Assembly: GCA_031549365.1 (NCBI GenBank)
Contig: JAVBPX010000007.1
Location: forward strand, 10,502-74,501
Direction: 5' to 3'
Length of the DNA: 64,000 nucleotides
Source of the DNA: Alphaproteobacteria bacterium
Lineage (GTDB): Bacteria; Pseudomonadota; Alphaproteobacteria; Rs-D84
Part shown: positions 1 through 42,112 of the stretch, piece by piece
Numbering within the stretch: the first letter of the stretch is position 1
Layout of the letters: every line of letters begins with the position of its first letter
Program-made: the position numbers and the translations under genes
Notes under the pieces: model-generated
Database searches by the model: none
Told to the model about the DNA's origin: nothing
Seen by the model: the letters and a program-made list of their open reading frames with translations, nothing else

Positions 1-1071
1 CACAGTCGATCCTTCAACCGATTGCGGCGCCAAATACGAATCAACATATGACCCAACATTTGTCTGTTGCTGAATTTGAATTGATGTGGGCGTAATTGGA
101 TCCCCTGAAATACTCCATTCTGCAATACTGGTCAAAACTTGTAAATGCGTACCAGAAACAACCGTAACAACTTTTTGCTGTTGATGCGATAATAACATTA
201 ATGAAATCGCATCATCATCCAATCCGTTTCCTACATTAAAATTAAAATGATTCCCTGTTTTTGATAACCAAACACCACAAGGCACATCCCGCGTCCCGCC
301 AAAAACCAATCTATTTTGATGAAATGTAACGGACGACGGGAAACCACGGCGTGGTGAAAAAACGCCCTCCTGCCAATCTGGGAAAAATCCAGTCGGACAA
401 TCTTTCAGCGGCCGATTCTGGGAAACATCAATATACTCATCCGTAACAACGCGAATAATAAATTCCCCATCATAAAATCTTAAATGCGATCCAATATCAG
501 ATTGCTTAAAATGATTTTTCTCGGACACATATAAACGAACATGCCCCAATAATTCAGACGTCCCCAATTTTAATGAAACCCCCGAATTATCATCAAATTT
601 CGCGAATGGAATGCAGCGCATACTATCAACCAAATCAAAATAAATATTCGCAATTGAAAATTTTCCATCAGCATTTCGTTTTAAAACTTGCGGCATATAA
701 TCGGTATGAACAAAAATCATTTGGGAAAATCGTTGCGCTGATTGAATTTGGTTCAAATCCTTTTCATCCCAAATCGTATCCAGTTCGGCAATTTTAATAT
801 CATCATCGTAAATTGTTAATTTGCGATCTGTTAAAACACATAAATAATCCATATCATCACGGAATACGAATGAAAACAACCGCGCCTTTCCAACAATTTC
901 ATCAACCAAAACTGTCCCAGATCTACGACGAATACCCCCAGAAACCAAAACATCCATATTTTGTAATTTTGAAACACCATTGATAACATTTTTCAAATCG
1001 TTACGAACATGAGCAAATTTGCTAATTTCCCCAGACGAAAAATTAGATTGCGTTTTGATAAAACGTCCCAC
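1..1071 (-). CDS. Podophage tail tubular protein B-like (T7 gp12/P22 gp10-like); runs off the window start
   Basis: Not in the ORF track. GTG start at 1071 after SD AAGGAG. Manual translation of parts gives MGRFIKTQSNFSSGEIS and GFPSSVTFHQNRLVFGG...WLSKTG, typical tubular-B motifs. Follows the tubular-A gene. Confidence 0.8.
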   Translation of the reverse strand, partial: MGRFIKTQSNFSSGEISKFAHVRNDLKNVINGVSKLQNMDVLVSGGIRRRSGTVLVDEIVGKARLFSFVFRDDMDYLCVLTDRKLTIYDDDIKIAELDTIWDEKDLNQIQSAQRFSQMIFVHTDYMPQVLKRNADGKFSIANIYFDLVDSMRCIPFAKFDDNSGVSLKLGTSELLGHVRLYVSEKNHFKQSDIGSHLRFYDGEFIIRVVTDEYIDVSQNRPLKDCPTGFFPDWQEGVFSPRRGFPSSVTFHQNRLVFGGTRDVPCGVWLSKTGNHFNFNVGNGLDDDAISLMLLSHQQQKVVTVVSGTHLQVLTSIAEWSISGDPITPTSIQIQQQTNVGSYVDSYLAPQSVEGSTV

Positions 1072-1082
1072 ATTTAACTCCT

Positions 1083-1625
1083 TTAATACCTAACATCCAA
1101 TAACGAAAAATGAATTCCCCCATCTCTTGACACTTGGGAACTGTCTATAAATTTTGCCTGACGTAATTCGGCCTCGAACAAAGAAACCAGAGTCCGGTAT
1201 AAATTATAATTCTCGGTCAGAGGCAAACAAAATTCGCACGCCAACTTTAAAACAGCAATTGATTGAAAATATGGAGGATAGTCGGAAACATCGACTCGCC
1301 GAATATAATTCAAATTAATCGAAGATGTATTTGCAAAAATATTTGCACCCATAACTTCATAATTATTTGTTTCATCCACACTTATAATCCGCAAACAATC
1401 AGACGGGATTAAAAAACAATTTTTCCTATCCTCACCTGCAACAGGGATCAATCTTTTTGAAACTCTGGCAAAATTCCAAGGATGCATCGCCACCAAACCA
1501 TCAACAACGCCTGGAAATATTGCATGCGCCATAACGGCCGCAACCGATTCTTCCGACATGGAAACAATCGGTTTTTCACCAATTTTTAATAATGCTTGCG
1601 CGCATAAATCTATTTTGGTTAACAT
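1083..1625 (-). CDS. Podophage tail tubular protein A-like (T7 gp11-like)
   Basis: IDLCAQALLKIGE, HPWNFA and FLIPSDCLRI motifs; 180 aa; lies between the capsid and tubular-B genes. Confidence 0.8.
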   Translation of the reverse strand: MLTKIDLCAQALLKIGEKPIVSMSEESVAAVMAHAIFPGVVDGLVAMHPWNFARVSKRLIPVAGEDRKNCFLIPSDCLRIISVDETNNYEVMGANIFANTSSINLNYIRRVDVSDYPPYFQSIAVLKLACEFCLPLTENYNLYRTLVSLFEAELRQAKFIDSSQVSRDGGIHFSLLDVRY

Positions 1626-2051: not shown

Positions 2052-2873
2052 CTATTGTGCGTCTTCACATTTCAAACGAACAACACCAGATCCATCAACC
2101 ATAATGGCCCCTTGGGACATACTGTTTGATACGAAATGCGCTGCACGTTCACCATGCCAAGAAATATCGGATTTCACATCCTGACCACATGCATGACCAA
2201 TGGCCGAACGGTGATAAATGAAACAATCACGCTCATCTCCATTAATTGGTAACGCATTATGTAAAACCCAAATAATCCCCATCCATTTTTTGGACTCGGA
2301 TCCACTCAATAATGGATATTGATTTCCAACATATTCTGATGATACAAATTCATCCATGGACAATAATTGGTTCCATTGATTAACACCAACAACAGCAAAT
2401 CTCTGACCATCATCTGGCACATCATTTTGATTTAATTTTGCAATTGCGGATAAAATCAAATCCTTGGACAAACCGGTTGAATAATCCCCAACAAATGCGG
2501 TCGCAGAATTCATAGCATTAATAATTAATTCATCGGTTTTTCGACCCAACGCATACGCCCCAGCGGACGCAACAACACGACGTTCATCAACATTGGTTTT
2601 TAATTCATCCAATGCATCAACCCAATCCCCTGCATAAAAATCATTCAACAAACATTCAACTGGCTCATGATCCAAATTCATCACAGGCACCAACCCATGA
2701 CGCGATTTTGAACTGGCAATACCTTTGCCTACTTTTTGAAAAGTTGTGCTTGCGCCAACAACTCCATTTTTTGATCTAACCGTAGCACGCAATTTTGTAC
2801 CAATTTGTTGATACGCCAAATGCACATCGGCTTCGAACTGTTTAACAAACGCTTGGTCAATTGACAAAGACAT
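2052..2873 (-). CDS. Phage major capsid protein, podophage-like
   Basis: SIDQAFVKQFEADVHLAYQ...KLRATVR, AYALGRKTDELII and DVPDDGQRF motifs; SD AAGGAG. Confidence 0.85.
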   Translation of the reverse strand: MSLSIDQAFVKQFEADVHLAYQQIGTKLRATVRSKNGVVGASTTFQKVGKGIASSKSRHGLVPVMNLDHEPVECLLNDFYAGDWVDALDELKTNVDERRVVASAGAYALGRKTDELIINAMNSATAFVGDYSTGLSKDLILSAIAKLNQNDVPDDGQRFAVVGVNQWNQLLSMDEFVSSEYVGNQYPLLSGSESKKWMGIIWVLHNALPINGDERDCFIYHRSAIGHACGQDVKSDISWHGERAAHFVSNSMSQGAIMVDGSGVVRLKCEDAQ

Positions 2874-3202: not shown

Positions 3203-3790
3203 TTATTTGAATTCTTTTGCTAATTTTGAAAACAATGCCGAAGTTCTGAATCTATTTTCTTTTCTTACAAATACATCTTCGCGCAATTCGCCCTCAAATA
3301 CATAACCGCAACGGCTGGCTACTTTTTTGCTTTGTTCATTTTCCCTATCGCACCGTATAAAAATTCTATTCATTTTAAAATCATTAAACAGCTCTTTTTC
3401 CAGTGCCGAAATTGCATATTTGATAATCCCTTTGCCTGTCATATCTTTATCCAGCCAATATCCCAATCCACACAACCTGTCTTGCGTATTTATCTTGTGA
3501 ACATCAATCCATCCGCACATAGCGCCATCAAAAAAAATCCCAAACTCAAAATTTTTACAATCCTCCCAATCAGACTTTGCAGCATATAAAAACGCCAAAG
3601 AATCATTAACATCTTTTACAACATCGTCATTTGCCCACTGAACAAATGGCAACAGATGATGCCGATTTCTTTCCGTCATATTAAAAAGCAATCGCGCATT
3701 TTCCAAATCGGGTTCGACAAATCTCAATTCCAAACCTTTGACGTCCGTTGAAATTACTTTTGGAAACATCTTTAAATCAATAACATCCAT
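3203..3790 (-). CDS. RimJ/RimL-family GNAT N-acetyltransferase
   Basis: LGYWLDKDMTGKGI and NEQSKKVASRCGYVFEG motifs; likely ATG at 3790 with SD AAGGA. Confidence 0.85.
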   Translation of the reverse strand: MDVIDLKMFPKVISTDVKGLELRFVEPDLENARLLFNMTERNRHHLLPFVQWANDDVVKDVNDSLAFLYAAKSDWEDCKNFEFGIFFDGAMCGWIDVHKINTQDRLCGLGYWLDKDMTGKGIIKYAISALEKELFNDFKMNRIFIRCDRENEQSKKVASRCGYVFEGELREDVFVRKENRFRTSALFSKLAKEFK

Positions 3791-3952
3791 CAAAAATCCT
3801 TTTATATTTTGTACCAATCGCTTGAAGAATAGCATAAAATTTATATTTTTCAAACTATTAACATATGATTGGCAGAATTGAACTTCGTCTACTTGACGAC
3901 CCACCCACCAGAATTTTAACACAAGGAAAACTCAACGATGCAATCTCAACTA

Positions 3953-4025
3953 TATAAATACATTTATTCCTACATTTTTATTTACCAAAATAAAAATGCC
4001 ACAACACTCGTTGGGCAAAAAATAA
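3953..4025. repeat. Diverged ~70 bp direct repeat, copy 2
   Basis: Aligns by eye with 3027-3097. Confidence 0.7.
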
Positions 4026-4113
4026 AATATTTTAAAGGCTAAATACTCTCTTTCAAAAATCCCCGAACTTTTTTATTGTCCGGGGATCACTCTCTAACAA
4101 GAAATCAAAATTA

Positions 4114-4875
4114 TTACTTCTTGGCAAACATAAATGATAATTCACTATAAATTGCTCGGAACGAAGTAATTGTTAATGTCAAAATAAATGACACTATTGC
4201 GAAACGACGAACTGCAAACCAAACCATATCCCATGAAAACCAACATACTTGGTCCGATAAACAGTATTCCGACAAACTACGTCCAATTATATGCCCAGCA
4301 TCCAAATAATACAGAATTCCCGCTACAAATCCCAATCCCAAAGAAATCACAACGTTTTGTTTTAATTCCTTGGAAACTCTTGGACGACGTTTTTCTGTGT
4401 AATTTCCATAAACAAACAAAAATACACATGCAATAACAAACAAAAACATAGGAATAAAAAATTTCATAAACAACGAAATCCAAACAAAAAATTGGTCAAT
4501 TAAAAACAAATCTAATGAAAACACATCTGTGTATCTATAAACAGCAACCGCATTCATAACACCAAAATAAGTTGCAACAAATGCTGACACCATCATCCAA
4601 AATGCCATAAACCGTCTGGCACCAATATAACCCGCAATATTTGTAATTTCATGCCCAATATTGCTAACTGAATTTTGTGTTTCTTTTAACAACTTTTGCT
4701 CCGCAGCACCCTTTTTTTCAGGCACCACAGAATTTAAATCTTTTTCAACAGCTTCAACCACCTTAACAGGCTTAACAACTTTCTCCGCCTTAACTGATTT
4801 AACAGCCTTAATCTTTTTAACTTTTTTGACCTTAATTTCTCTTGCCAATGAAACTTTCTTTTTTGGTCTTGCCAT
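4114..4875 (-). CDS. Hypothetical membrane protein with Lys/Val-rich N-terminus
   Basis: Likely start MARPKKK after GAGGA; about 4 hydrophobic segments. Confidence 0.7.
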   Translation of the reverse strand: MARPKKKVSLAREIKVKKVKKIKAVKSVKAEKVVKPVKVVEAVEKDLNSVVPEKKGAAEQKLLKETQNSVSNIGHEITNIAGYIGARRFMAFWMMVSAFVATYFGVMNAVAVYRYTDVFSLDLFLIDQFFVWISLFMKFFIPMFLFVIACVFLFVYGNYTEKRRPRVSKELKQNVVISLGLGFVAGILYYLDAGHIIGRSLSEYCLSDQVCWFSWDMVWFAVRRFAIVSFILTLTITSFRAIYSELSFMFAKK

Positions 4876-4954
4876 AATCCAATCCTCTCTATTCTCTCGA
4901 ACTCTCCTAAACAAAAAACGGGTTCAACCAAATGGCCGAACCCGCACAACCATC

Positions 4955-5530
4955 TTATTTTTTCTTTGCTACTTTTTTAACAGCTGGTTTTTTGGCTGCT
5001 GGTTTTTTAACAGCAACTTTTTTTGCAACTGGTTTTTTCGCAGGGGCTTTTTTTGCCACTACTTTCTTAGCAACTGGTTTTTTTGCTGCTGGTTTTTTTG
5101 CAACTACTTTTTTAACAGCTGGTTTTTTGGCTGCTGGTTTTTTAACAGCAACTTTTTTTGCAACTGGTTTTTTCGCAGGGGCTTTTTTAACAGCAACTTT
5201 TTTTGCAACTGGCTTTTTTGCGGCTACAGGTTTTTTTGCAACAGCTTTTTTAACAGCCAATTTTGCAACTTTTTTTGCAACTGGTTTTTTCGCAGGAGCT
5301 TTTTTAACAGCAACTTTTTTGGCCACTGGTTTCTTAGCAACTGGTTTTTTAACAGCTACAACTTTTTTTGCAACTGGTTTCTTAGCGGCTGGTTTTTTCG
5401 CAGCTACTTTTTTAACAGCTGGTTTTTTAACAGCTGGTTTTTTTGCAGCAGCTTTAACAGCAGGTTTCGCAGCTACTTTTTTTGCAGCTGGTTTTTTCCC
5501 TTCGCTAAAGAACTTTGATAATACGGACAT
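4955..5530 (-). CDS. Histone H1-like Lys/Ala/Pro/Val-rich nucleoid protein (HctB/BpH1-like)
   Basis: Pentapeptide repeats [15 protein letters not shown] over about 180 aa; SD-like AAGGA upstream. Confidence 0.8.
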
Positions 5531-5649: not shown

Positions 5650-6306
5650 TTACGAATATAATTTTTTAAAACCCGATTCAATTTTTTTTACATACTCTTG
5701 ATCGTGTTCTCTCCAATATTTTGGATCACGCATCATCGTTCGTAAATCATTTTCATTTAATGATGAATCAAAATTTTCACCAGTTGAAATTTTTGGCTCA
5801 ACCGATTGCATCATATTGTATAACGCTTGTATTCCCTTGGCGCTGGAACACATTGTATTCATAACATCTTCCGGCAAAAACTTTTCGCCCCACGCTTGAA
5901 TTGATTCACATGATGAAATCATTTTATCTTTTGAACCAAAAATTTTTTCTAATTCACTTAATTCTTCCAACTCGGATCGAATTTGAAAAATATTATCCAA
6001 CTCTGGTTTTAAAATTTCATCCGCCAACAAATAAATCTGTTCAACTTGATTTTTATTCAAACCAATTTTTTTAAACGTATTTCGAATCGAATCATTATTT
6101 TCAAACATCGGATGTATCGGATATTCTGAAACATCATCCGGCACACCAATTGCTTTGAAAAACTTCTGACGACATTCATCATCCATATCATTATTTGGGA
6201 TTGAAATCATCCCACCCATCTTTTTTTCCAACGCCAAATATGAATTCATCAATGAATCCACATTCAACTCACCATTTTCATTTTTAAATTTTTCTGGAAT
6301 ATCCAT
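5650..6306 (-). CDS. Phage capsid assembly scaffolding protein (T7 gp9-like)
   Basis: N-terminal IPEKF...SYLALEKK and C-terminal LRTMMRDPKYW...GFKKLY; acidic; SD GGAGG. Confidence 0.7.
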   Translation of the reverse strand: MDIPEKFKNENGELNVDSLMNSYLALEKKMGGMISIPNNDMDDECRQKFFKAIGVPDDVSEYPIHPMFENNDSIRNTFKKIGLNKNQVEQIYLLADEILKPELDNIFQIRSELEELSELEKIFGSKDKMISSCESIQAWGEKFLPEDVMNTMCSSAKGIQALYNMMQSVEPKISTGENFDSSLNENDLRTMMRDPKYWREHDQEYVKKIESGFKKLYS

Positions 6307-6469: not shown

Positions 6470-6658
6470 TTATTTTGCAATACTGGAACGCAGAAAAAAT
6501 ATCCCAGCCAACGGAAACACCGTCTGCAATAAATCAATCAAACCTAAATCTCCGACAAAAAACGCACCGATTGCGGAAATAATTCCAACCCCGGTTGTAA
6601 TATATGTCTTTTTACCTTTAAATAACCCACCATTAATAATGCTTAAAATTGTATTCAT
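6470..6658 (-). CDS. Small holin-like membrane protein
   Basis: 62 aa; LFKGKKTYI followed by two hydrophobic segments; SD AAGGAG; next to a cell-wall hydrolase. Confidence 0.55.
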   Translation of the reverse strand: MNTILSIINGGLFKGKKTYITTGVGIISAIGAFFVGDLGLIDLLQTVFPLAGIFFLRSSIAK

Positions 6659-6783
6659 AATAACTCCTTATATATAATGTCTAAAACACACCAACCTTTG
6701 ACTCTAAAAAAATACCCGTACCAACAAAAGTATTTCAAAATCAATCAAAACGTACTAGTTGGCTTCGCTTTTCATTGATTTTT

Positions 6784-7239
6784 CTATAAATAAAATAACA
6801 AATTCCCAACTTCATAAATATACCCCAACGCTCTGGCCCAATCCGGATCCATATCATTTCGATGAAACCGAACCGCTGAAAATATATTATTTGAAATTTG
6901 TCCTAACATCATCCGCCGAATTGTTCTTAAACAAACCAAAAATTCTTCATCAGTGTTATCAACAAACAAATACGAATGATGATTCGATTCCCGATCTAAC
7001 GATTCAAATAGTGCCGCATCCTCACCAATTGCTTCAAAAGATTGTCCCAACAATTTATGTCGATTTAAAATCATAGCAGCCAATGCTTCCTTAACCGCTA
7101 AATCTTCACCACTTGTTTCCGCATACATTACTCGGGCCAATTTATATTGAATCCTCTTTTCATCATCATAATTTTCAATAATTGTAAAAATCGGCTTTGA
7201 AATTTGTGAAACCATTTCTGTTTTTAAAACAACATTCAT
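6784..7239 (-). CDS. Cell wall hydrolase, SleB/Hydrolase_2-like (endolysin candidate)
   Basis: LARVMYAETSGE...AAMILNR and AVRFH...PDWA...VGNLLFY motifs. Confidence 0.7.
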   Translation of the reverse strand: MNVVLKTEMVSQISKPIFTIIENYDDEKRIQYKLARVMYAETSGEDLAVKEALAAMILNRHKLLGQSFEAIGEDAALFESLDRESNHHSYLFVDNTDEEFLVCLRTIRRMMLGQISNNIFSAVRFHRNDMDPDWARALGYIYEVGNLLFYL

Positions 7240-7523
7240 AAATTGTCTCCTCTCTCTAATTTTTTTTCAATCCTCAACAAATGATCCGTCAACCTAGTTT
7301 CCAAATCCTTCATAGCGGACATACTTGCGTAATTCCTTGCAACATCTAATTTATAATCAGCCAAATCTTTGCGAATTGCATCTACATGAAACGCATAATT
7401 CTCGCGTAAACGTTCAACCAAATGTTCGACTGCCGAAATCTGATTTCGAATCCATAAAAAAAAGCCCCCGATCAAGGGAACTTCTACAACCTGTATCCAC
7501 CAGGCCAAATCCATATTCTCCAT
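7236..7523 (-). CDS. Phage-associated membrane-anchored coiled-coil protein
   Basis: N-terminal hydrophobic segment, then LADYKLDVARNYAS...LLRIEKKL; 4-bp overlap with the hydrolase gene. Confidence 0.6.
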   Translation of the reverse strand: MENMDLAWWIQVVEVPLIGGFFLWIRNQISAVEHLVERLRENYAFHVDAIRKDLADYKLDVARNYASMSAMKDLETRLTDHLLRIEKKLERGDNL

Positions 7524-7571: not shown

Positions 7572-7742
7572 TTTGCAATTATTAAAAAAGTATAAAAAAA
7601 TCGGCCCAGGGCCGATCAAATACACTTCTACTGTTAATGGAAACATAGTACCACATTTCAACCTGAAAGTCAAGACATTTTTTAATAGACAACACGCAAT
7701 TTTCGTTTTATCCTACATCGCTTAAACATGAAAGGCTTAAAA

Positions 7743-9673: not shown

Positions 9674-9759
9674 ATAGCAACAAAACTATTAACACATTAT
9701 TGCATCCTTTAAAAAAATATGCTATAAATCCAAACGAAAATAAGACCAAAGGACAAAAA

Positions 9760-10311
9760 ATGAAAGACTTCATGAAATCATTCCGCGCATTTTCGGAAAG
9801 CCGTAATATATTGGGCGTTGGAATCGGTGTGGCCCTGGGTGCCAGCTTTGCAAAAATCGTCGAATCCATGGTCCGCGATATTATAATGCCACCATTGGGA
9901 TTAATTTTCGGAACGGTGGATTTATCGAATATATTCTTTACAATATATCCCGGCAACGATGGCAAAATGATTTATAAAACCCTGGCCGATGCACAATCCG
10001 CGCACGCAATAACAATGAACGTCGGATCATTTTTAAATACAATAATCAGCTTTACTCTTGCCGCCATCGCGGTATTCTTGGTCATCCGCTGGCTCAGCCG
10101 CACAAACATAATGATTGATTCCACTGCATCCCGCACAAAATCATGCCCGTTTTGTTTATCGGACATTCCGTACCGCGCAACCAAATGTAAATTTTGCACA
10201 TCAACTCAACCGGAATTAAAACCATCAAAACAAAAACGCGAAAAATCAATTGATGAAAAACTGGTCCACGAAATAAAACGCAGCGTCAAAAAAATCAAAA
10301 AACATATCTAA
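9760..10311 (+). CDS. mscL: Large-conductance mechanosensitive channel with C-terminal zinc ribbon
   Basis: GVALGASFAKIVESMVRDIIMPPLG and GSFLNTIISF motifs; CPFC...CKFC tail. Confidence 0.85.
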   Translation: MKDFMKSFRAFSESRNILGVGIGVALGASFAKIVESMVRDIIMPPLGLIFGTVDLSNIFFTIYPGNDGKMIYKTLADAQSAHAITMNVGSFLNTIISFTLAAIAVFLVIRWLSRTNIMIDSTASRTKSCPFCLSDIPYRATKCKFCTSTQPELKPSKQKREKSIDEKLVHEIKRSVKKIKKHI

Positions 10312-10313
10312 AC

Positions 10314-10338
10314 AAAAATCCCCATCTGGGGATTTTTT
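10314..10338. terminator. Bidirectional intrinsic terminator
   Basis: AAAAATCCCC-ATCT-GGGGATTTTTT between convergent genes. Confidence 0.8.
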
Positions 10339-10417
10339 AATCAATAGTTTCACTCCATTATACAAACATCGTCCGCAATCGATAATAATACAAATAAAAA
10401 AGCAAATCCGATAAAAA

Positions 10418-11356
10418 TCACATCCTGGTCAATAAAAATGCGAAATAAACTCCATACGCACCTAAATATAAAAACGCATCCTGCTTTGTGATTTTTTTAC
10501 GAACAATCATGGACCAAGCCAATAATCCCACGGCCATCAACAAAACCCAAATATCAAATGTCTGAATTGAACCTGAAATTTTCAATGGGCTGATAATGCC
10601 GGCCAATCCCAATAATAAAACTATACGAATAAAACTTGAACCCAAAATATTTCCAAACGCAATATTAGTCTTGTTATTCTTGACCGCCATCAACGTAATA
10701 ATAAATTCTGGCATGGATGTCGCCATTGCCACAACAAACGTACCAACAAATGCCTGACTTAAATTATACTGACTTAAAATCTCCATCAAAGCATCAAAAA
10801 ATACATGTCCTCCAACGATTAAAACTAAACCACCCATCCCAATATATAACCAAATCATTTTCCAAGTCATAAATATCGTCGGCACCAAATCACATGACAA
10901 ACAAATAACAACCTGCTTTCTACTGGATAAATATTCACGTAATAAAAATCCGCCAAATAATAACAATAACGCAAATGCTCCAATCCGCGAAACTTCTCCA
11001 TCAATAACCATCAACGTCAACAACGCCGCGGCCAATCCTAAAAATATCATATATGATTTATATCGACCAATTGGAATATCCAACGTACGAATTAACCCGG
11101 CCAATCCTAATAATAATAAAATCGCAATTAAATTTGCCCCAATAACGCCACCAACTGCAACATCCCCTAAACCTCGTGCTGCTGCGCCAATTGTTACAAC
11201 CAATTCCGGCAAGCACCCGCCCAATCCTATAACCAGTACCGCCACACAAAACTCGGGCCATCCTAAACGCGCCGACAAACGACACGTTCCTCGAACTAAA
11301 TACTCGGCACCAAAAAACATAGCAGCCATTCCCAAAATCAACCACACCCAAGCCAT
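10418..11356 (-). CDS. Ca2+/Na+ (cation:Ca2+) antiporter, YrbG-like
   Basis: Two alpha repeats, GGCLPEL...GANL and ATSMPEF...GNILGSS; about 10 hydrophobic segments. Confidence 0.88.
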   Translation of the reverse strand: MAWVWLILGMAAMFFGAEYLVRGTCRLSARLGWPEFCVAVLVIGLGGCLPELVVTIGAAARGLGDVAVGGVIGANLIAILLLLGLAGLIRTLDIPIGRYKSYMIFLGLAAALLTLMVIDGEVSRIGAFALLLLFGGFLLREYLSSRKQVVICLSCDLVPTIFMTWKMIWLYIGMGGLVLIVGGHVFFDALMEILSQYNLSQAFVGTFVVAMATSMPEFIITLMAVKNNKTNIAFGNILGSSFIRIVLLLGLAGIISPLKISGSIQTFDIWVLLMAVGLLAWSMIVRKKITKQDAFLYLGAYGVYFAFLLTRM

Positions 11357-16238: not shown

Positions 16239-16445
16239 TTCCATAATAATATATACCACAAGATATAAGATTTATTAAAATTACAATTCCGCAATTACAG
16301 GCATAACAAAACGTTCATAATATTCGCATAAATTATCAAAATACAAATATTTTTTTGCATCCAAATCCCAAAACTTTGCCGAACAGGAAAAATTGTTTTT
16401 TAACAATCATTGACTTTTTATAGTAAAACCAATAGAGTTTTAATC

Positions 16446-16865
16446 ATGAGAAATGTATTCTGGATTTTTGGCGCAAGCCTATTATTTATATGTAACAATG
16501 CAAACGCAGATCAATGTGCTTACATAGATAAAAACACAAGAGATAATGCGTATAACATATTGAAATCCACAGATACCTACATAGATTTTTGTGCGCCATG
16601 CCAAGATATCGAACCAATAGAAAAAAAGATAAATAAAGTCGAATACAAAAAAGTCGATTATATTAAAAACAATATCCAGTTCTATCAAATATATATAAAC
16701 GACGAACCTATAGATATCGCATATATCTATGTTGGCGGGCGAAATCTGGGGGTAGCTGCAAACTGTGAACCATTTGTAGGTCAGCAAGTACAAAATGTTC
16801 CAGAATATATAGCGGATTATTTGTCCGGAAAATGGACTTTGCCACCTGAACGCGAACCAGAATAA
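16446..16865 (+). CDS. Secreted Cys-containing hypothetical protein
   Basis: Signal peptide ending ANA; DQCAY and FCAPC motifs. Confidence 0.7.
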   Translation: MRNVFWIFGASLLFICNNANADQCAYIDKNTRDNAYNILKSTDTYIDFCAPCQDIEPIEKKINKVEYKKVDYIKNNIQFYQIYINDEPIDIAYIYVGGRNLGVAANCEPFVGQQVQNVPEYIADYLSGKWTLPPEREPE

Positions 16866-16885: not shown

Positions 16886-18109
16886 TTAATAATTATTTGT
16901 TCTGATTGTCCATCCGCCTTTTGCTGTTGGCCAATTCGTAGTTGAACGTAAATAATCAAACCTTACCGCCTTTAAGGTATCCATAAATTCTGGGACTTTG
17001 TTTTCTGGAATTGAATTAATAGCTTTTATTGTATTAGCACCTATTTTGCCATCAACTTTTAACCCTGCATCGGCATAAGAATTTAATGCATTCTGTGTAA
17101 CGCGACCCGCGCCACCCATTACATTCATATCAAATACAGCATTTCTGATACGATCATTTTCTATTTTTGGTATATCCGTTTTATCCCAATATGCATCCTT
17201 ATAAATTTCACGCGCTTGTTCTTGCTTCAAATCTTTCACATCTTTTGGGAATTCCTTATCAGGGTGTTTTGCGCTGTAATCATCAAGGGTGCTTTGCTTG
17301 ATACCCATATTTGTAGGCTCATCTTTTTTCTGATTCTTTCCATCTGTATAACCACCTTCGGGCTCCTTAAGGTTTTTATACGCTGTTTCAAAGTTTTTAT
17401 CTTTATCCACTTCCTTCTCTTTCCATTCTTTTTTCTTTTCGTTTAACTCTGCCAGTTTAGCTTGTTTCTCAGGATCTGGTTTTCCGTACTCCGCCTCATA
17501 TTCTTCCTTGGTCATTTCTTCTGCATAACATGCACAATTTGGATGCATCCCACCCGCTTCATTTGGATCGCTTAAAATTGTGCCGGCCATTGATGCGCAT
17601 GCATCACAGCCACCGCCACTGCACCAGACATATACTACCTCTTTATCACAGATGCATACTTCAATTGGCCAACCACAATCTTGGCAATTGGCCTCGTTCT
17701 CTTCCCCTGAATCCAGGATTTCAACATCATAAATTTCAAGATTTTTTGTCTCGATAACATCGTCATTCATCAAAACTCTTACTGGGATTATTTCAGACAA
17801 AATAATCTTGAACTCTGTTTCAGATTCTTCTGCATCCTCATCATTTTCATCGTCACCTTTTTTTATTTGTTTAATTTTCTCATCCAGTTCGACTTTTATT
17901 TGGGCTTCCGCTTCCTCAAACTGCTCAAGCGTCATATCGTATTCAGGTTCTGCCATACGACCAGTCGCGTCATATTCCAAAGTTCCCGGATAGAACCTTT
18001 GCAATTGCTTTGTAACTTCTGCATTTGTTTTCGAATGGGATGGATTATCTTTATTTATGTACGCGTCCGACCGCATTAGTTTTCTTAAAAACTGTGGTGT
18101 TTTTATCAT
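16886..18109 (-). CDS. Multidomain muramidase: scaffold-like N-terminal peptide, MuF-like Cys motif and GH108 lysozyme with PG-binding domain
   Basis: ATG at 18109 with SD AAGGA; CDAC...G...HPNCAC; EGGY...PTNMGI; VFDMNVMGG, LKVDGKIGANT and GWTIR motifs. Confidence 0.8.
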   Translation of the reverse strand: MIKTPQFLRKLMRSDAYINKDNPSHSKTNAEVTKQLQRFYPGTLEYDATGRMAEPEYDMTLEQFEEAEAQIKVELDEKIKQIKKGDDENDEDAEESETEFKIILSEIIPVRVLMNDDVIETKNLEIYDVEILDSGEENEANCQDCGWPIEVCICDKEVVYVWCSGGGCDACASMAGTILSDPNEAGGMHPNCACYAEEMTKEEYEAEYGKPDPEKQAKLAELNEKKKEWKEKEVDKDKNFETAYKNLKEPEGGYTDGKNQKKDEPTNMGIKQSTLDDYSAKHPDKEFPKDVKDLKQEQAREIYKDAYWDKTDIPKIENDRIRNAVFDMNVMGGAGRVTQNALNSYADAGLKVDGKIGANTIKAINSIPENKVPEFMDTLKAVRFDYLRSTTNWPTAKGGWTIRTNNY

Positions 18110-18119
18110 TGGTTTTTCC

Positions 18120-18442
18120 TTTGTTAAATAAAAAGCCCCGCACAATGGCGGGGCAATAAAAAACGGCGGCAAATCCGCCTCAATATGCTTTGCATTGTAC
18201 CACAAATCGTCAAAAAAATCAATAATAAACACCCTTAAAATTCCGACGCACCAATGAACAGTGCACTGCCAAAAACGGGCATTGTATGTAAACATCAAAA
18301 TATCGCCGTATTTTCACATATAAAATTACATACCATTGCAATAACCTTAAAAACACATCAAAAAATCCCCGGATTCCGGGGATAATTCAAGGGCTATTGA
18401 TTTTGTTAAAAATTACAGCAAAATCAACAAGTTATCTGGCGG
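18120..18442. repeat. Diverged ~320 bp element-end repeat ending in att-like TTATCTGGCGG
   Basis: Aligns with 41780-42112 up to the tRNA-Ser 3' end; a partial third copy lies at 40335-40393. Confidence 0.9.
18194..18222 (-). promoter_or_regulatory. Sigma70-type promoter with extended -10
   Basis: TTGATT, 17 bp spacer ending TGG, then TACAAT; conserved in the copy at 41862-41890. Confidence 0.7.
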
Positions 18443-25968: not shown

Positions 25969-27807
25969 TTATTTTAAAAAATCATTCAATCTATCGGCAA
26001 TTTTCTTATCAATCAGATTTTTTTTTAAGGAAACGATTTCATCTATTGGCAAACCTTTAAGACCATTTGCAACAGTCATTATTTTTTCATTCTCAGCTTT
26101 AAGCCAATTTTTTGCCATAGATACAACCTGGTCGATTTTAACCATTCCTTTTTCACCAGTTGATCTTACTTTCCATTCAGCAGAACCCTGTTCCAAAGTC
26201 CGTTGACTAATAACAAACTGCAGAGGAACACCCAATAAGTCTATATCGGCAAACTTTTCACCGGCACTGGTGTTTCTGTCATCCAAGATAACTTCAATGC
26301 CTTCTTTTTGCATTTGTTTATACAAATCATTCGCTTGGTTTTCAATGGTTTTGTCTTCTGATTTTCCTGCCAGTGCAACGATGGATACTTTCCATGGTGC
26401 AATCGATACTGGCCAAATAGGACCACGCTCATCATATCTTGCTTCAACTACACTTGCCATTAATCGTCCAATTCCAATGCCATAGCATCCCATAATGGGC
26501 GTTTGAATCTTTGTATTTTCATCCATATATGACATTTTCATAGATTTGGTATATTTATCACCCAATTGGAATATATTACCAACCTCGATACCTCTGTGAA
26601 CTTTGATTGGGCTTCCACATTTTTGACATAAATCACCATCTTGCACGGATACTAAATCAAACAACTCTGCTGTTGGAATATCTCGCTTGATATTGAAATT
26701 AGCAAAATGATATCCTTCTTCATTGGCTCCTGTAACAAGGTTCTTTTCTAAAGTCAAACCTTCATCAACAATAACTCTCGCGTTTTTTAATTTATACCCA
26801 GAAGCATATCCAGGGACTACTCCAGAATTATCAAATGCAATATCATCTGCGAATTCGGGCATCGCTTGCAAAATTTTCGACAATTTACTTTCATTTACAT
26901 CTCTGTCGCCACGAATCATAACTACAATAGTTCTTTTGTCCCCATCAACAGGTTTATAAACGACAGTCTTTGCAAAACGATTTGATGGCATTTTTAACAA
27001 TTTTGAAACTTCTTCGATTGTTTCTGCATTTGGTGTATAGATTTTTTCCAATGGCTTTTCTGTGTCATTTTCATTAACTACGGTAATCTTTGAGTTTGCA
27101 ACTTCTTTGTTTGCTTTGTAATCGCAGTCTGAGCAAGTGATAATTGTGTCCTCTCCGGATGAGGTTAACAACATGTACTCGTGGGCAACTTTACCACCCA
27201 TCATACCACTGTCTGATTTAATAGCAATGACTTCTGGAATCCCAGCCCTCGCAAAAATACGACTGTATGCAATAGCTGCCCTTGCATAGTAGCCTTCCAA
27301 ATCTTCCTGAGAGGTATGGAAAGAATATGCATCTTTCATGGTGAATTCCTTAACTCGGATTAACCCTCCGCGTGGACGAGCTTCGTCCCTGAACTTCTTC
27401 GCGAATTGGTATATTGTAAATGGATAATCTTTATAGCTGGTAGCCTCAGTCCTTGCCAAAGCAACAGCAGTCTCTTCATGAGTCATGGCCAAAACCATGT
27501 CATGTTCGTTTCTGTCTTTGAAACGAGCCAATTCATCATTAATGGCGAAATAACGGCCAGATTCTTCCCAAAGCTCTTTTGGTTGAACCAAAGGCATTTC
27601 AACTTCTTGCCCATCAATATTATTCATCTCTTCACGGACAATAGCTTCTATATTCTTTAAAACCTTTAAACCAGGCAATAATGAAGAAAATATCCCACTG
27701 AAAACAGGACGAACATACCCACCACGAATGAGTAACTCATGGCTTTTTAATTTGGTATCACTTGGCTTTTCTTTATAACGTTTGCCAAGAAGTTGATTTA
27801 TCTTCAT
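25969..27807 (-). CDS. proS: Proline-tRNA ligase with editing insertion domain (island-borne)
   Basis: LWEESGR, THEE, KFRDEARPRGGL, GIEVGNIFQLG and MGCYGIG motifs. Confidence 0.95.
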   Translation of the reverse strand: MKINQLLGKRYKEKPSDTKLKSHELLIRGGYVRPVFSGIFSSLLPGLKVLKNIEAIVREEMNNIDGQEVEMPLVQPKELWEESGRYFAINDELARFKDRNEHDMVLAMTHEETAVALARTEATSYKDYPFTIYQFAKKFRDEARPRGGLIRVKEFTMKDAYSFHTSQEDLEGYYARAAIAYSRIFARAGIPEVIAIKSDSGMMGGKVAHEYMLLTSSGEDTIITCSDCDYKANKEVANSKITVVNENDTEKPLEKIYTPNAETIEEVSKLLKMPSNRFAKTVVYKPVDGDKRTIVVMIRGDRDVNESKLSKILQAMPEFADDIAFDNSGVVPGYASGYKLKNARVIVDEGLTLEKNLVTGANEEGYHFANFNIKRDIPTAELFDLVSVQDGDLCQKCGSPIKVHRGIEVGNIFQLGDKYTKSMKMSYMDENTKIQTPIMGCYGIGIGRLMASVVEARYDERGPIWPVSIAPWKVSIVALAGKSEDKTIENQANDLYKQMQKEGIEVILDDRNTSAGEKFADIDLLGVPLQFVISQRTLEQGSAEWKVRSTGEKGMVKIDQVVSMAKNWLKAENEKIMTVANGLKGLPIDEIVSLKKNLIDKKIADRLNDFLK

Positions 27808-38777: not shown

Positions 38778-40277
38778 ATGCCAAAAATTAAATGCGCGAT
38801 ATATGTTCGTAAATCGACCGAGAAAGGTTTGGATATGGAATTTAATTCATTACATAACCAAGAAGATTCTTGCCGATCATACATCGCATCGCAATCATTC
38901 AACAACTGGGAATATTACAAAACATACACTGATGGTGGAATATCTGGTGGCACCATGGAGCGCCCCGCATTACAACAAATGTTGAACGACATCGAACACG
39001 GATTGATACAAATTGTGGTGGTTTACAAAGTCGACCGCCTGTCACGACCCATCATGGATTTTCATAATATGATAAAACGTTTTGAAAAATATAATTGTGA
39101 TTTTGTTTCAATTACCCAGGCTTTTGACACATCCTCATCAATGGGAAAACTGACGCTGAATATGTTATTGTCGTTTGCCCAATTCGAACGCGAAGTATCA
39201 TCGGAACGTGTCCGCGATAAAATCCGAGCCAGCAAAGCCAAAGGCCTGTGGACTGGCGGAATGCCAAAATTGGGATACGATATTATCAATCGTAAATTGG
39301 AAATAAATCTGGACGAAGCCGATCAGGTTAAATTCATATTTGAAACATATTTGATTGTTGGATCATTGTCTGAATTATCCGAAATTACCCGCGGCCGAAA
39401 TATCACTATGAAAAAATGGACAACCCAAACCGGTCACATTATGGGTGGTGGAATATTTTCAACCAGTTCATTAAACCGATTATTGCACGAAAAATTATAC
39501 ATTGGAAAAATTGAAAACAAACGCACAAAACAATTCTTTGACGGTCAACACGCGGCCATTATTTCGCCGGAATTGTTTGATGCTGTTCAACAAAAATTAT
39601 CCGACCAAAATCGCCGAAAAACTGAAACCACTAAACAATCAAACAATTTATTATCTGGTAAAATATTCAATGCCAATGGTCGGGCATTCACCAACCAATC
39701 AACAACGGGCAGTGATAAACGATATTACGCCAGTCCTGGGTTTTACATTCCCGCCCACGATGCCGAAAGAATTGCCACAGAAACCATTGTTGAATTATTG
39801 GACGCAGACCTTTCAAAACTGCCGCCCAACACAGCGATGTCCATGAAGCAAATTGATTTCAACGGATTGGAATATTTACAGCAACGCGAATTAATCAAGT
39901 CGTTAATCGCCAAAATCATATATGCAAATAATCAAATGACATTCTTCATAAAGCCCGACCCCGCTGTAATCCGACAATTCGCAACCAACACAATCAATGA
40001 AAACAATACACCAATGGATTTCATCATCGACAACAATACAATCATTATAAAACGTGATATAGTCTTTATGAAAGGCATCAGCAGCAATAAGTATAATGCC
40101 GGTAAAACAGGAATGCTGACTATCACCGACAACAACCACCTTATCACCCGGGCATTCGTGATTGCTTGGCGATTCCGTAAAATATATGAAGAACATGGCG
40201 ACACGAAACTACTGGCTAAAATGGAAAAAACATCATTGCGAAATGTTTTTAAATATTTGAATATTGCATATCTGTAA
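38778..40277 (+). CDS. Large serine recombinase; probably nonsense-truncated (frame continues to 40355)
   Basis: CAIYVRKS, DGGISG, YKVDRLSR and FAQFERE motifs; ends IAYL* followed in frame by PDKVNEIMSG. Confidence 0.92.
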   Translation: MPKIKCAIYVRKSTEKGLDMEFNSLHNQEDSCRSYIASQSFNNWEYYKTYTDGGISGGTMERPALQQMLNDIEHGLIQIVVVYKVDRLSRPIMDFHNMIKRFEKYNCDFVSITQAFDTSSSMGKLTLNMLLSFAQFEREVSSERVRDKIRASKAKGLWTGGMPKLGYDIINRKLEINLDEADQVKFIFETYLIVGSLSELSEITRGRNITMKKWTTQTGHIMGGGIFSTSSLNRLLHEKLYIGKIENKRTKQFFDGQHAAIISPELFDAVQQKLSDQNRRKTETTKQSNNLLSGKIFNANGRAFTNQSTTGSDKRYYASPGFYIPAHDAERIATETIVELLDADLSKLPPNTAMSMKQIDFNGLEYLQQRELIKSLIAKIIYANNQMTFFIKPDPAVIRQFATNTINENNTPMDFIIDNNTIIIKRDIVFMKGISSNKYNAGKTGMLTITDNNHLITRAFVIAWRFRKIYEEHGDTKLLAKMEKTSLRNVFKYLNIAYL

Positions 40278-40691: not shown

Positions 40692-41117
40692 TTAAATATG
40701 CACGATTTCGATATCTGGAAAATGTGTTGCCAAATATTCCGCAATCAAACGGCGATGGCATTTATCGGCGGTCTTTTCAGAACACAAAAAACACGCACCA
40801 TCCAAATCATCGGGTTTAAATAAATTCTCGACTTTTCGCGTCGCCAAAATTCCATTAAAAGTCTGTTCGTATTCTGGCCAACCGATTTCGTCGTCTTTAT
40901 AGTCTGACAACAGTTCTTTGGTCGGAGCCAGTTCCGGCATATAACAATATTTATCGCCCAATAATTTTTGCAAATTTGCGCCACTTGCCCATGGCACAAA
41001 TCGTGCCACCCGCCACATCCGAATATCAATCAATTTTTTGACGCGCACGGCATCCAGGATATCTGTAAAAATATCCTGACTTTTGCCACTGAAACCGATT
41101 GTATAAATCTTTGTCAT
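40692..41117 (-). CDS. DUF488 family protein
   Basis: IYTIGFS, LIDIR, ELAPTKELL and LCSEK...CHRRLIAE motifs. Confidence 0.85.
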   Translation of the reverse strand: MTKIYTIGFSGKSQDIFTDILDAVRVKKLIDIRMWRVARFVPWASGANLQKLLGDKYCYMPELAPTKELLSDYKDDEIGWPEYEQTFNGILATRKVENLFKPDDLDGACFLCSEKTADKCHRRLIAEYLATHFPDIEIVHI

Positions 41118-41118
41118 A

Positions 41119-41766
41119 TTAGTACAAGAATATGCCATTCAGCATCAAATAACAATGGTTTTCTTGCATTAAAAATGGTCGCGCCAGACCAATACGACAA
41201 TGTGCAAATTGTGATGCGGCAACCACTTCGTTCAATTTTTCAACATCATTGGTTTTATCAAAAATATCGCGGATGAATTTACAGCTGACTTTCAAATTAT
41301 ATTCTTTTTTTGAATAATCTGTAACCTTGGCGCGTAATTTCCCATTTTCGGTATGAAACTCAACATTTGCAGACGGGATCAAAATTGCACCCAAAGACGC
41401 ACATTTTGTCTGCTTTGGCACATATGAATTTTCTTTTACTTTGTGATTAAAAATACTCTGAATGTCCTTGGATACACTGTCGCGCAACAAGTTGGCGATT
41501 TTCTTACCCGGTTCAAAAACCTCCTGTACTTTGATTGATTCAAATTCAATATCCACATCTTCGGTTCGATGAGGATAGTCACGCGGTTCTTTAAATAGCT
41601 CATTATTCACAATGATTGATGAATATTGTGGCAACTGGTCTGCTTCCCATTATTTACCATCAATCATCAGCCGCTTCATCAGTCGTTCGTGCGTATCCCA
41701 ACCAGCCACACAAAATTTATCTTTCATACATGTAATGTCCGAGATAATAATATTTGATTTTATCAT
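41119..41766 (-). pseudogene. Dual-OB-domain-like gene with an in-frame stop at codon 39
   Basis: ATG at 41766 after SD AAGGAG reads MIKSNIIISDITCMKDKFCVAGW...DGK*WEADQLPQY; TAA at 41650-41652 is in frame with ORF 41119-41634. Confidence 0.7.
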
Positions 41767-41779
41767 AATAACTCCTTTA

Positions 41780-42112
41780 TCAAATAAAAAAAAAGCCCTG
41801 CCAGAAATAGCAGGACTAAAATTAAAAAAAGACGGATAAAATCCGCCTAAACATGTCCCATATTATATCATAAATCGTCAAAAAAATCAATCATAAATTT
41901 CTTCGAAATATCTACTCAATAATAAAACAGTGCACTGCCGAAATAGGGCATTGTATGTAAAGATCGAAATATCTAGGTGTTCCGGCAGATAAAATTACAT
42001 ACCATTGCAATAACCTTAAAAACGCATCAAAAAAATCCCCGGATTCCGGGGATAATTCAAGGGTTATCGACTTTGTTAAAAATTGCAGTAAAATCAACAA
42101 CTTATCTGGCGG
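41780..42112. repeat. Element-end repeat adjoining tRNA-Ser, with promoter (41862-41890) and tRNA terminator (42035-42053)
   Basis: Aligns with 18120-18442; the ATCCCCGGATTCCGGGGAT hairpin is identical in both. Confidence 0.9.

Follow-up and report, generated by a model that had tools for sequence, protein, structure and literature searches.

A candidate particle-borne muramidase with a scaffold-like N-terminal hook in sub-1-Mb gut Alphaproteobacteria

The 64,000-nucleotide stretch of contig JAVBPX010000007.1 analyzed here (the window), from an Alphaproteobacteria bacterium, encodes a muramidase at 16886-18109 (the effector) whose N-terminal residues, termed the hook or tag, resemble the C-terminal end of a phage-type scaffolding protein. 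The scaffold gene lies in a capsid operon about 10 kb away, with host genes in between (Table 1). An original prediction, made by eye, had read this likeness as a capsid cargo-loading tag and the enzyme as part of a capsid-delivered polymorphic toxin system. In our assessment the effector is, with a probability of roughly 0.5, a cytoplasmically made, particle-borne, MuF-type peptidoglycan hydrolase, and the convergent gene at 16410-16865 encodes its secreted immunity protein. The prediction gained from the swapping of cargo, the pairing with partner genes, a conserved particle, a shared leader, and hook homology. A simple capsid-tag reading lost ground through, among others, one relative (genome G121) and through the faintness of the match to the resident scaffold.

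A polymorphic effector family and its partner genes

The 407-aa effector begins MIKTPQFLRKLMRSDAYI, and the ATG at 18109 is consistent with where 39 aligned homologues start. The acidic linker, CxxC...HPNCxC motif, and GH108 domain that had been predicted from the sequence, together with the lack of a signal peptide, are all borne out by Pfam, the alignment, and the translation; the N-terminus is non-hydrophobic. In the extension behind the hook, D47, G50, P55, Y57-T60, and F64 are near-invariant among homologues, and this type of extension also follows the internal hooks of unrelated larger proteins. An acidic stretch covers about residues 61 to 100. The MuF-type zinc core is marked by invariant C168, C171, H189, N191, C192, and C194. 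The effector matches the minor head protein family phrog_115 (PHROG, 1e-5); a Pfam scan at E ≤ 0.01 gave it no PF04233 match, and its relatives match PF04233 only at profile positions ~56 to 112, with 20 to 39 bits against a cut-off of 29.6. The enzyme domain matches PF05838 at residues 249 to 333 (6.6e-15; 55.8 bits versus a curated cut-off of 21.2). E251 and G252 of its EGGY motif are invariant in 40 effector sequences, the glutamate presumably being the catalytic residue of GH108. The fold of the GH108 part resembles Brucella SagA (7dnp, E 9e-6), NMB1012, and Salmonella TtsA; the Foldseek search with the full effector model returned matches to this part only. A role as the release endolysin of the particle was considered and set aside: the capsid operon already encodes a SleB-like hydrolase, together with a small membrane protein of two helices.

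Homologues were sought in 151 genomes of the order, all of them metagenome-assembled, so that a missing gene is not proof of absence. Some part of the effector is matched in 83 of these genomes and the tag in about 47 (hand count of the match table), all in the family of the source genome. Short tagged forms were found in two further families of the order, and the hook thus occurs in three. A profile built solely from 19 effector N-termini and searched against a library of 1.84 billion representative proteins returned 128 matches at E ≤ 1e-3. The cargo behind the N-terminal module varies. Among 22 scanned relatives it was GH24 (9), Tlde1/YkuD (8), GH108 (3), M23 (1), or the MuF core only (1). 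The 36 scanned library matches carried GH24 (10), GH108 (5), Tlde1/YkuD (2), DUF2924 (1), Fic/DOC (1), the MuF core only (6), or nothing recognized (11). Two or three effector paralogues per genome occur, and in genome G074 the hook is fused directly to the zinc core.

Comparison of these proteins shows a polymorphic family, in which a conserved N-terminal module (hook, linker, and MuF zinc core) carries interchangeable enzyme cargo. The idea that the tag would be found on varied toxin domains was confirmed by fusions of the N-terminal module to GH108, GH24, Tlde1/YkuD, M23, DUF2924, and Fic/DOC. The companion idea, that it would be confined to particle-bearing genomes, has an apparent exception in G121, which has a tagged gene and no scaffold, capsid, or portal match. 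Kinship confounds this co-occurrence, since the tag is confined to a clade in which the particle is nearly universal. A 264-aa variant (L030 1955-2749; G068:C3) consists of an unknown 165-aa N-terminal domain, the hook, and a MuF zinc core at its extreme C-terminus; no enzyme cargo was recognized in it.

The convergent partner of the window effector has 13 homologues in the 151 genomes, 12 of which abut a GH108 gene, tagged or untagged, the remaining one being an orphan. All eight Tlde1-type genes are accompanied on the same strand by an open reading frame (ORF) for a 99- to 128-aa membrane protein, placed between a 3-bp overlap and 23 bp downstream; these partner ORFs form three families and are often arrayed. 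GH108-type genes abut a convergent signal-peptide ORF, and GH24-type genes have partners of a different signal-peptide family. In genomes G066, G054, G053, and G080, untagged cargo cassettes, each with its own partner, lie downstream of full-length tagged genes. The arrangement of cargo and partner matches that of polymorphic toxin-immunity loci, and we infer that the product of 16410-16865 protects against the GH108 cargo. The wall-targeting effector-immunity pairs of type VI secretion are comparable: they too join peptidoglycan enzymes acting in the periplasm to enzyme-specific immunity proteins (candidates here), and Tlde1, which pairs there with a periplasmic immunity protein, is also among the cargo of this family. 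The delivery module differs, being a phage head protein with a hook here and not a secretion-system adaptor.

Two further observations concern these cassettes. An orphan homologue of the GH24-type partner family lies divergently beside the portal gene of the source genome (G000:C4:3741-4160, minus strand; L002 996-1466), and that genome has no GH24-type toxin. A second, distant GH108-like family (~27% identity) with a signal peptide ends two toxin cassette arrays (L067 1033-1572 and L069 4396-4929).

Relationship between the hook and the scaffold C-terminus

The scaffold at 5650-6306 is a T7-type capsid assembly protein (PF05396 at 1e-11; also phrog_3742). Searches with single sequences or single profiles did not recover the likeness that had been seen by eye between its C-terminal end and the N-terminus of the effector. 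The two ends do not align in BLASTP of the effector against the resident scaffold. When a hidden Markov model (HMM) of the tag was searched against the 16,505 six-frame ORFs of the same genome, the resident scaffold appeared at only E 5.2 (rank 9) or E 2.8 (rank 3), and the reverse search of these ORFs with an HMM of scaffold C-ends, which the original prediction had proposed as its check, missed the muramidase at E < 10. None of nine tag fragments of 56 to 60 aa matched PF05396 in Pfam at E ≤ 10. A word-indexed search with effector residues 1 to 70 found only the query itself, because the window tag has few exact words in common with its relatives.

Comparison of whole families gave a different result. 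In hhalign, alignments of 40 muramidases and 40 scaffolds produced a single match, between the tag and the scaffold C-end (P 9.6e-4). The score of 34.1 compares with a mean of 15.5 (standard deviation 2.5, maximum 22.0) in 100 column shuffles, and for the scaffold C-end block alone the score was 31.2, where 150 within-block shuffles reached 23.8 at most. Wider sets of 57 tags and 47 scaffold ends, which came from three of the order's families, gave a score of 34.3 (P 3.3e-7, probability 93%), which was attained by 0 of 400 shuffles (mean 9.7, maximum 18.7); the reversed alignment scored 10.1. Three of the library matches, proteins of 250, 259, and 314 aa aligned at their last 35 to 39 residues (E 5.6e-4 to 6.7e-4 over the whole library), are full-length phrog_3742 scaffolds (E 1e-37 to 1e-45), and one of them aligns with the window scaffold family (160 columns, 94% probability). 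Taken alone, the C-terminal portion of phrog_3742 matches hook segments in six other proteins. At one IMG/VR locus (L186), effector-tag profiles match the C-end of the scaffold only (9758-10630); a second (L187), found like the first through library protein P0329, has no match to these profiles, and no relatives of library protein P0335 were found in IMG/VR. AlphaFold2 models place helices at residues 6-12, 15-18, and 25-39 of the tag and at 185-192, 195-198, and 203-217 of the scaffold, a helix, a short helix, and a long helix in both; those of the scaffold come after a disordered linker. A search of solved-structure sequences with the scaffold profile found nothing relevant.

Taken as sequence families, the tag and the scaffold C-terminal hook are homologous. 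The likeness seen by eye is therefore upheld at the level of families and not at that of the pair. Chance similarity of two short helical peptides would account for the non-significant BLASTP and single-profile searches within the genome and for the lack of any link in Pfam. It is very improbable, given a profile-profile score unmatched in 100, 150, and 400 shuffles and a tag profile that retrieves scaffold C-ends both from 1.84 billion proteins and from a viral contig.

In other phages, C-terminal hooks of scaffolds bind the coat protein, and P22 ejection proteins co-assemble with the scaffold (PMC12005531). SaPI1 CpmB copies the C-end of the 80alpha scaffold to bind coat (PMC5644958). In the account that we favor, the effector hook derives from the coat-binding end of a scaffold and would most likely load the enzyme into the procapsid. 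Alternatively, the effector could be particle-borne with a hook that does not bind coat and that instead attaches to the portal, to the scaffold core, or to some other internal protein, or that only stabilizes the N-terminal domain, so that a fold is shared with the scaffold and a binding partner is not. The residues common to tag and scaffold, which are mainly those of the hydrophobic core, and the loss of the basic scaffold C-end would fit such a role, as would SPP1 gp7, a MuF protein held by the portal (PMC5576092), and the docking of P22 ejection proteins on scaffold columns (PMC12005531). We regard it as improbable, because the C-terminal hook is the coat-binding element in other phages (PMC12005531, PMC5644958) and the effector hook is retained in three families of the order alongside the capsid. 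The hook stands at the N-terminus of the window enzyme and is internal in the G068 variant and in PG_binding_1 proteins; it does not occupy the C-terminal position that it has in scaffolds. A complex prediction for the capsid (30-row alignment) and tag residues 1 to 60 (40 rows), run without controls, scored 0.00 and counts neither for nor against binding.

One locus (L015 2780-2911; G049:C1) has an isolated 43-codon ORF with ~71% identity to the C-terminal 31 residues of the window scaffold; this ORF may be a leftover, or its product may compete, as a small protein, with scaffold-coat binding. The island in which it lies starts with a tyrosine integrase gene and is, by eye, G+C-richer than its surroundings.

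The phage-derived particle and the shared leader

The source genome (G000; 911 kb, 15 contigs, 97.6% complete) belongs to an order of sub-1-Mb gut Alphaproteobacteria related to Candidatus Enterousia. Phage, capsid, and gene transfer agent go unmentioned in the available portion of a paper on this order. Over the window and the 10.5 kb to its left, the minus strand encodes, in order, a phrog_29007 protein, a SleB-like hydrolase, a 62-aa membrane protein, the scaffold, three inserted genes, the capsid, tail tubular protein A, the nozzle, two small proteins, and a terminase split into ATPase and nuclease ORFs. The order of the first genes of this operon, possibly the lysis genes of the particle itself, is retained in relatives (L105, L106). 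The scaffold-capsid gap is ~2.8 kb in the source genome and holds, at 3203-5530 on the minus strand, a GNAT acetyltransferase, a 266-aa protein of no family, and a Lys/Ala-rich HC2-like ORF; in most relatives it is only ~700 bp. A T7-type portal is encoded on a separate contig (G000:C4:4231-5598), and searches of the source genome with PF04860, PF05133, and PF05065 returned no other portal or HK97-type capsid family. General family scans of the cluster turned up no prohead protease, although no search was aimed at one. The effector gene is not in a prophage.

These genes are widely conserved. The scaffold is found in 138 of the 151 order genomes, and 266 of 299 family genomes have its C-end. 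Of 61 genomes, 53 have the capsid (52% to 81% identity), and 35 of 41 have the terminase nuclease ORF, always as a separate frame of 268 to 412 aa. Particle genes are almost all single-copy, and most have no internal stop. Five family genomes without the scaffold have no capsid or portal match either, and one genome (G025) with no capsid or scaffold match has the terminase ORF. The ATPase and nuclease ORFs of the large terminase lie ~430 bp apart in the source genome (L001 6825-7709 and 8136-8747, minus strand), and Rfam detected no family, intron or other, in the gap. In every one of the 35 genomes that have a match, the nuclease half stands alone as an open frame, so that the split appears to be old and maintained; a pseudogene was rejected on the same count of open frames.

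The nearest phages are HTVC010P-type pelagiphages, the best match being Pelagibacter phage EXVC031P Hodr (44.5% capsid identity). The Hodr scaffold has a hook, and no tagged protein was found in Hodr. By its gene content and distribution, the set describes a domesticated, dispersed, vertically inherited, podovirus-like particle. As in gene transfer agents and tailocins, phage structural genes are intact, dispersed, and vertically inherited. Known alphaproteobacterial gene transfer agents are HK97-type and siphovirus-like, whereas this particle is related to HTVC010P-type podoviruses. A literature search at the level of titles found no paper on a T7-like gene transfer agent or on this set of particle genes.

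Hodr also has large internal virion proteins, and the particle cluster does not. This absence bears on another explanation, in which the effector is an ordinary virion-associated wall-penetration enzyme of a particle resembling a gene transfer agent, not a weapon, and the neighboring genes are unrelated or otherwise employed. A cluster without large internal proteins would need a separate wall-cutting protein, nearly all cargo targets peptidoglycan, and both portal and terminase are retained. P22 ejection proteins and T7 gp16-type internal virion proteins, which travel in the head and on ejection breach or cut the wall, are comparable to the effector as read here, but those are single-copy structural genes in the virion module, with neither immunity genes nor cargo swapping. 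The enzyme-specific partners, orphan partners, cassette arrays, and two to three paralogues per genome are hallmarks of toxin-immunity systems and not of a structural lysin, and one cargo is Fic/DOC, all of which makes a plain wall-penetration role quite unlikely.

A leader links the effector to the tail fibers. Examined by eye, all 26 of 26 tagged genes have two terminator-like hairpins right before the ribosome site, and 25 have an extended -10 promoter upstream of the hairpins; the upstream part differs in L018. In hairpin 1, each of the 6 pairs has compensatory changes. A covariance model of this leader (R1) finds seven sites in the source genome at E < 1e-3, namely those of the effector, three Mtd_N tail fibers (C4), a TcmP/DUF5131 cassette, and a DUF488 cassette, and one weak site. 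The 21 sites in five relatives precede 3 tagged toxins, 4 untagged wall enzymes or MuF-core genes, 5 tail fibers, 2 capsid operons, and 7 other genes. The capsid-operon leader of the window has one hairpin and is unlike the effector leader in sequence; the equivalent position matches R1 weakly in two of the five relatives (G044 and G085). Rfam assigned no leader family above threshold (best GcvB, 28 bits versus 42). The design of the leader suggests control by antitermination, and its distribution suggests that the effector belongs to the regulatory class of the tail fibers, in a leader class not exclusive to particle genes. The three paralogous tail-fiber genes (G000:C4:19312-19863, 26577-27173, and 39337-40116) share an Mtd_N-type N-terminus and differ in their C-terminal parts; they lie far from the tail-tube genes, each downstream of the shared leader.

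Table 1 Features of the window and leader sites elsewhere in the source genome (positions refer to the window unless a contig is named)
Feature	Position	Strand	Basis
Effector gene, 407 aa: hook, linker, MuF zinc core, GH108 muramidase	16886-18109	-	Translation, Pfam, PHROG, 39 full-length homologues aligned
N-terminal hook, aa 1-42, three helices	17984-18109	-	hhalign and shuffles, library search, AlphaFold2 helices
Post-hook extension, aa 43-68, DATGR and PEYDMTLEQF motifs, absent from scaffolds	17906-17983	-	Alignment
Acidic helix/linker, aa 69-99, and beta hairpin, aa 100-131	17717-17905	-	AlphaFold2 model, alignment
MuF-type zinc core, aa 156-200, CxxC...HPNCxC	17510-17644	-	Invariant Cys/His; phrog_115; PF04233 in relatives
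GH108 muramidase and PG_binding_3-like end, aa 246-407	16889-17374	-	PF05838, Foldseek
Convergent partner: secreted Cys-rich protein with signal peptide, candidate immunity protein or inhibitor for the GH108 cargo	16410-16865	+	
Effector leader: extended -10 promoter (18194-18222), terminator-like hairpins (18165-18179 and 18135-18154), then ribosome site	18135-18222	-	
Second leader copy, before a 171-aa ORF (41119-41634) and a DUF488 gene (40692-41138), beside tRNA-Ser	41764-41905	-	
Other leader sites of the source genome	G000:C4:19185-19314, 27337-27462, 39206-39330; G000:C14:148074-148214 (TcmP/DUF5131)		
Capsid-operon leader: promoter TTGACT, 17 nt, TGgTACTAT, then terminator-like hairpin	7590-7675	-	
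First capsid-operon genes: phrog_29007 protein (7236-7523), SleB-like wall hydrolase (6784-7239), 62-aa two-helix membrane protein (6470-6658)	6470-7523	-	
Scaffolding protein, 218 aa; C-terminal hook aa 185-218 (nt 5653-5754)	5650-6306	-	PF05396, phrog_3742, model
Major capsid protein	2052-2873	-	PF19821
Tail tubular protein A (1083-1625); start of nozzle/tail tubular B (1-1071), continuing left of the window	1-1625	-	

Proposed delivery by the particle and competing explanations

Delivery of MuF toxins in phage heads has been proposed before (Jamet et al. 2017, PMC5576092), in a paper whose available text contains no mention of peptidoglycan, lysozyme, or scaffold. If the effector of the window is delivered in this way, an antiterminator would let transcription pass the leaders, so that particle parts and effector are made together. 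Through its hook the effector would dock against the inside of the procapsid shell or within the scaffold core, as the scaffold C-end would, and the MuF core would hold it at the portal or on DNA. The hydrolase and holin-like protein of the particle would then release the particle, the tail fibers would bind a target cell, and the ejected effector would cut the wall of that cell. Cells making the periplasmic partner would be protected.

Several observations weigh against this reading. The tag resembles the resident scaffold weakly (E 2.8 to 5.2 within its own genome) and is nearer to scaffolds of other phages, which have a loop as long as that of the window tag; the tag lacks the basic GFKKLY terminus of that resident scaffold, and the residues in common are mostly hydrophobic and fold-defining. 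A second copy of the resident scaffold's C-end was found in only 5 of 299 family genomes. The tag occurs in about 47 of 151 genomes by hand count, compared with 138 for the scaffold, and three genomes (G023, G025, and G045) have zinc-core-GH108 proteins without a tag. Within the order, the hook is always attached to a MuF core and never stands as a free tag. The effector gene lies away from the portal gene, unlike typical MuF genes (PMC5576092). Nearly all cargo is peptidoglycan-directed, which is also compatible with a wall-penetration enzyme, and the partner proteins match no Pfam or known immunity family. No tagged relative was found by tblastn of residues 1 to 230 against 50,697 phage records at E ≤ 0.01, nor in IMG/VR by alignment search.

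Other observations against particle delivery speak for a bacteriolysin that acts independently of the particle, with its immunity protein. In that case the hook would be a general pre-toxin or adaptor module, release would occur by lysis or unknown export, and the likeness to the scaffold would reflect shared descent only. Outside the order, the hook with its DATG-type extension is internal in larger wall-hydrolase proteins that have PG_binding_1 first, no MuF core, and Pesticin-like, CHAP, SLT, or DUF6973 domains at their C-ends, so that the hook could be a general pre-toxin module. Proteins of two to four tandem hooks exist (P0262, P0285, and P0291, from G+C-rich sources); genome G121 keeps its tagged gene intact where scaffold, capsid, and portal were not found; and the leader also precedes non-particle genes (TcmP/DUF5131, DUF488, and methylase-like). 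Such a bacteriolysin is nonetheless rather unlikely. The MuF zinc core belongs to a family of phage head proteins (PMC5576092), the effector has no signal peptide, its leader also precedes three tail-fiber genes in the source genome and five in relatives, and true scaffolds end in hooks.

The particle-borne effector that we favor combines features of known systems. MuF polymorphic toxins of temperate phages share with it an N-side MuF module (putative here), a variable C-side toxin, and an adjacent immunity gene, a candidate here (PMC5576092). It differs from them in retaining only the last ~50 PF04233 positions, those of the zinc core, in its peptidoglycan-enzyme cargo, and in the extra hook at its N-terminus; its gene is neither beside a portal gene nor in a prophage, and its particle is a vertically inherited, dispersed gene set. 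SaPI1 CpmB is likewise a non-scaffold protein with a copy of a scaffold's coat-binding end (PMC5644958). CpmB, however, serves a satellite as an alternative scaffold, alters capsid size, and bears the motif C-terminally, whereas the effector is an enzyme with the motif at its N-terminus, and binding by this motif is putative.

The capsid targeting sequence of phage T4, a further parallel, is about 10 residues long and is removed by the prohead protease. Serving diverse internal proteins, it resembles the hook in being a short N-terminal peptide by which varied cargo enters the prohead, later to be ejected into a target cell (PMC3012670). The T4 sequence targets the scaffolding core, and no sequence relation to the hook was found. 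Extended to the whole order, these features would describe a domesticated particle that acts as a contact-independent toxin injector, with hook-loaded wall effectors, interchangeable fibers, gating by the shared leader, and kin immunity, the hook being a general head-loading code; we put this forward tentatively, as possible but doubtful.

Cargo tagging by scaffold mimicry is so far known mainly from engineered P22 particles and from an alternative scaffold made by a satellite. Should the hook bring proteins into the capsid, it would represent a portable cargo tag of natural origin that works by scaffold mimicry, and the long-proposed delivery of MuF toxins in phage heads would gain a concrete loading signal. 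Genomes of less than 1 Mb would then be keeping a phage-derived particle, three tail-fiber variants, and toxin-immunity cassettes, a sign that competition or exchange by way of the particle is strongly selected for in the gut.

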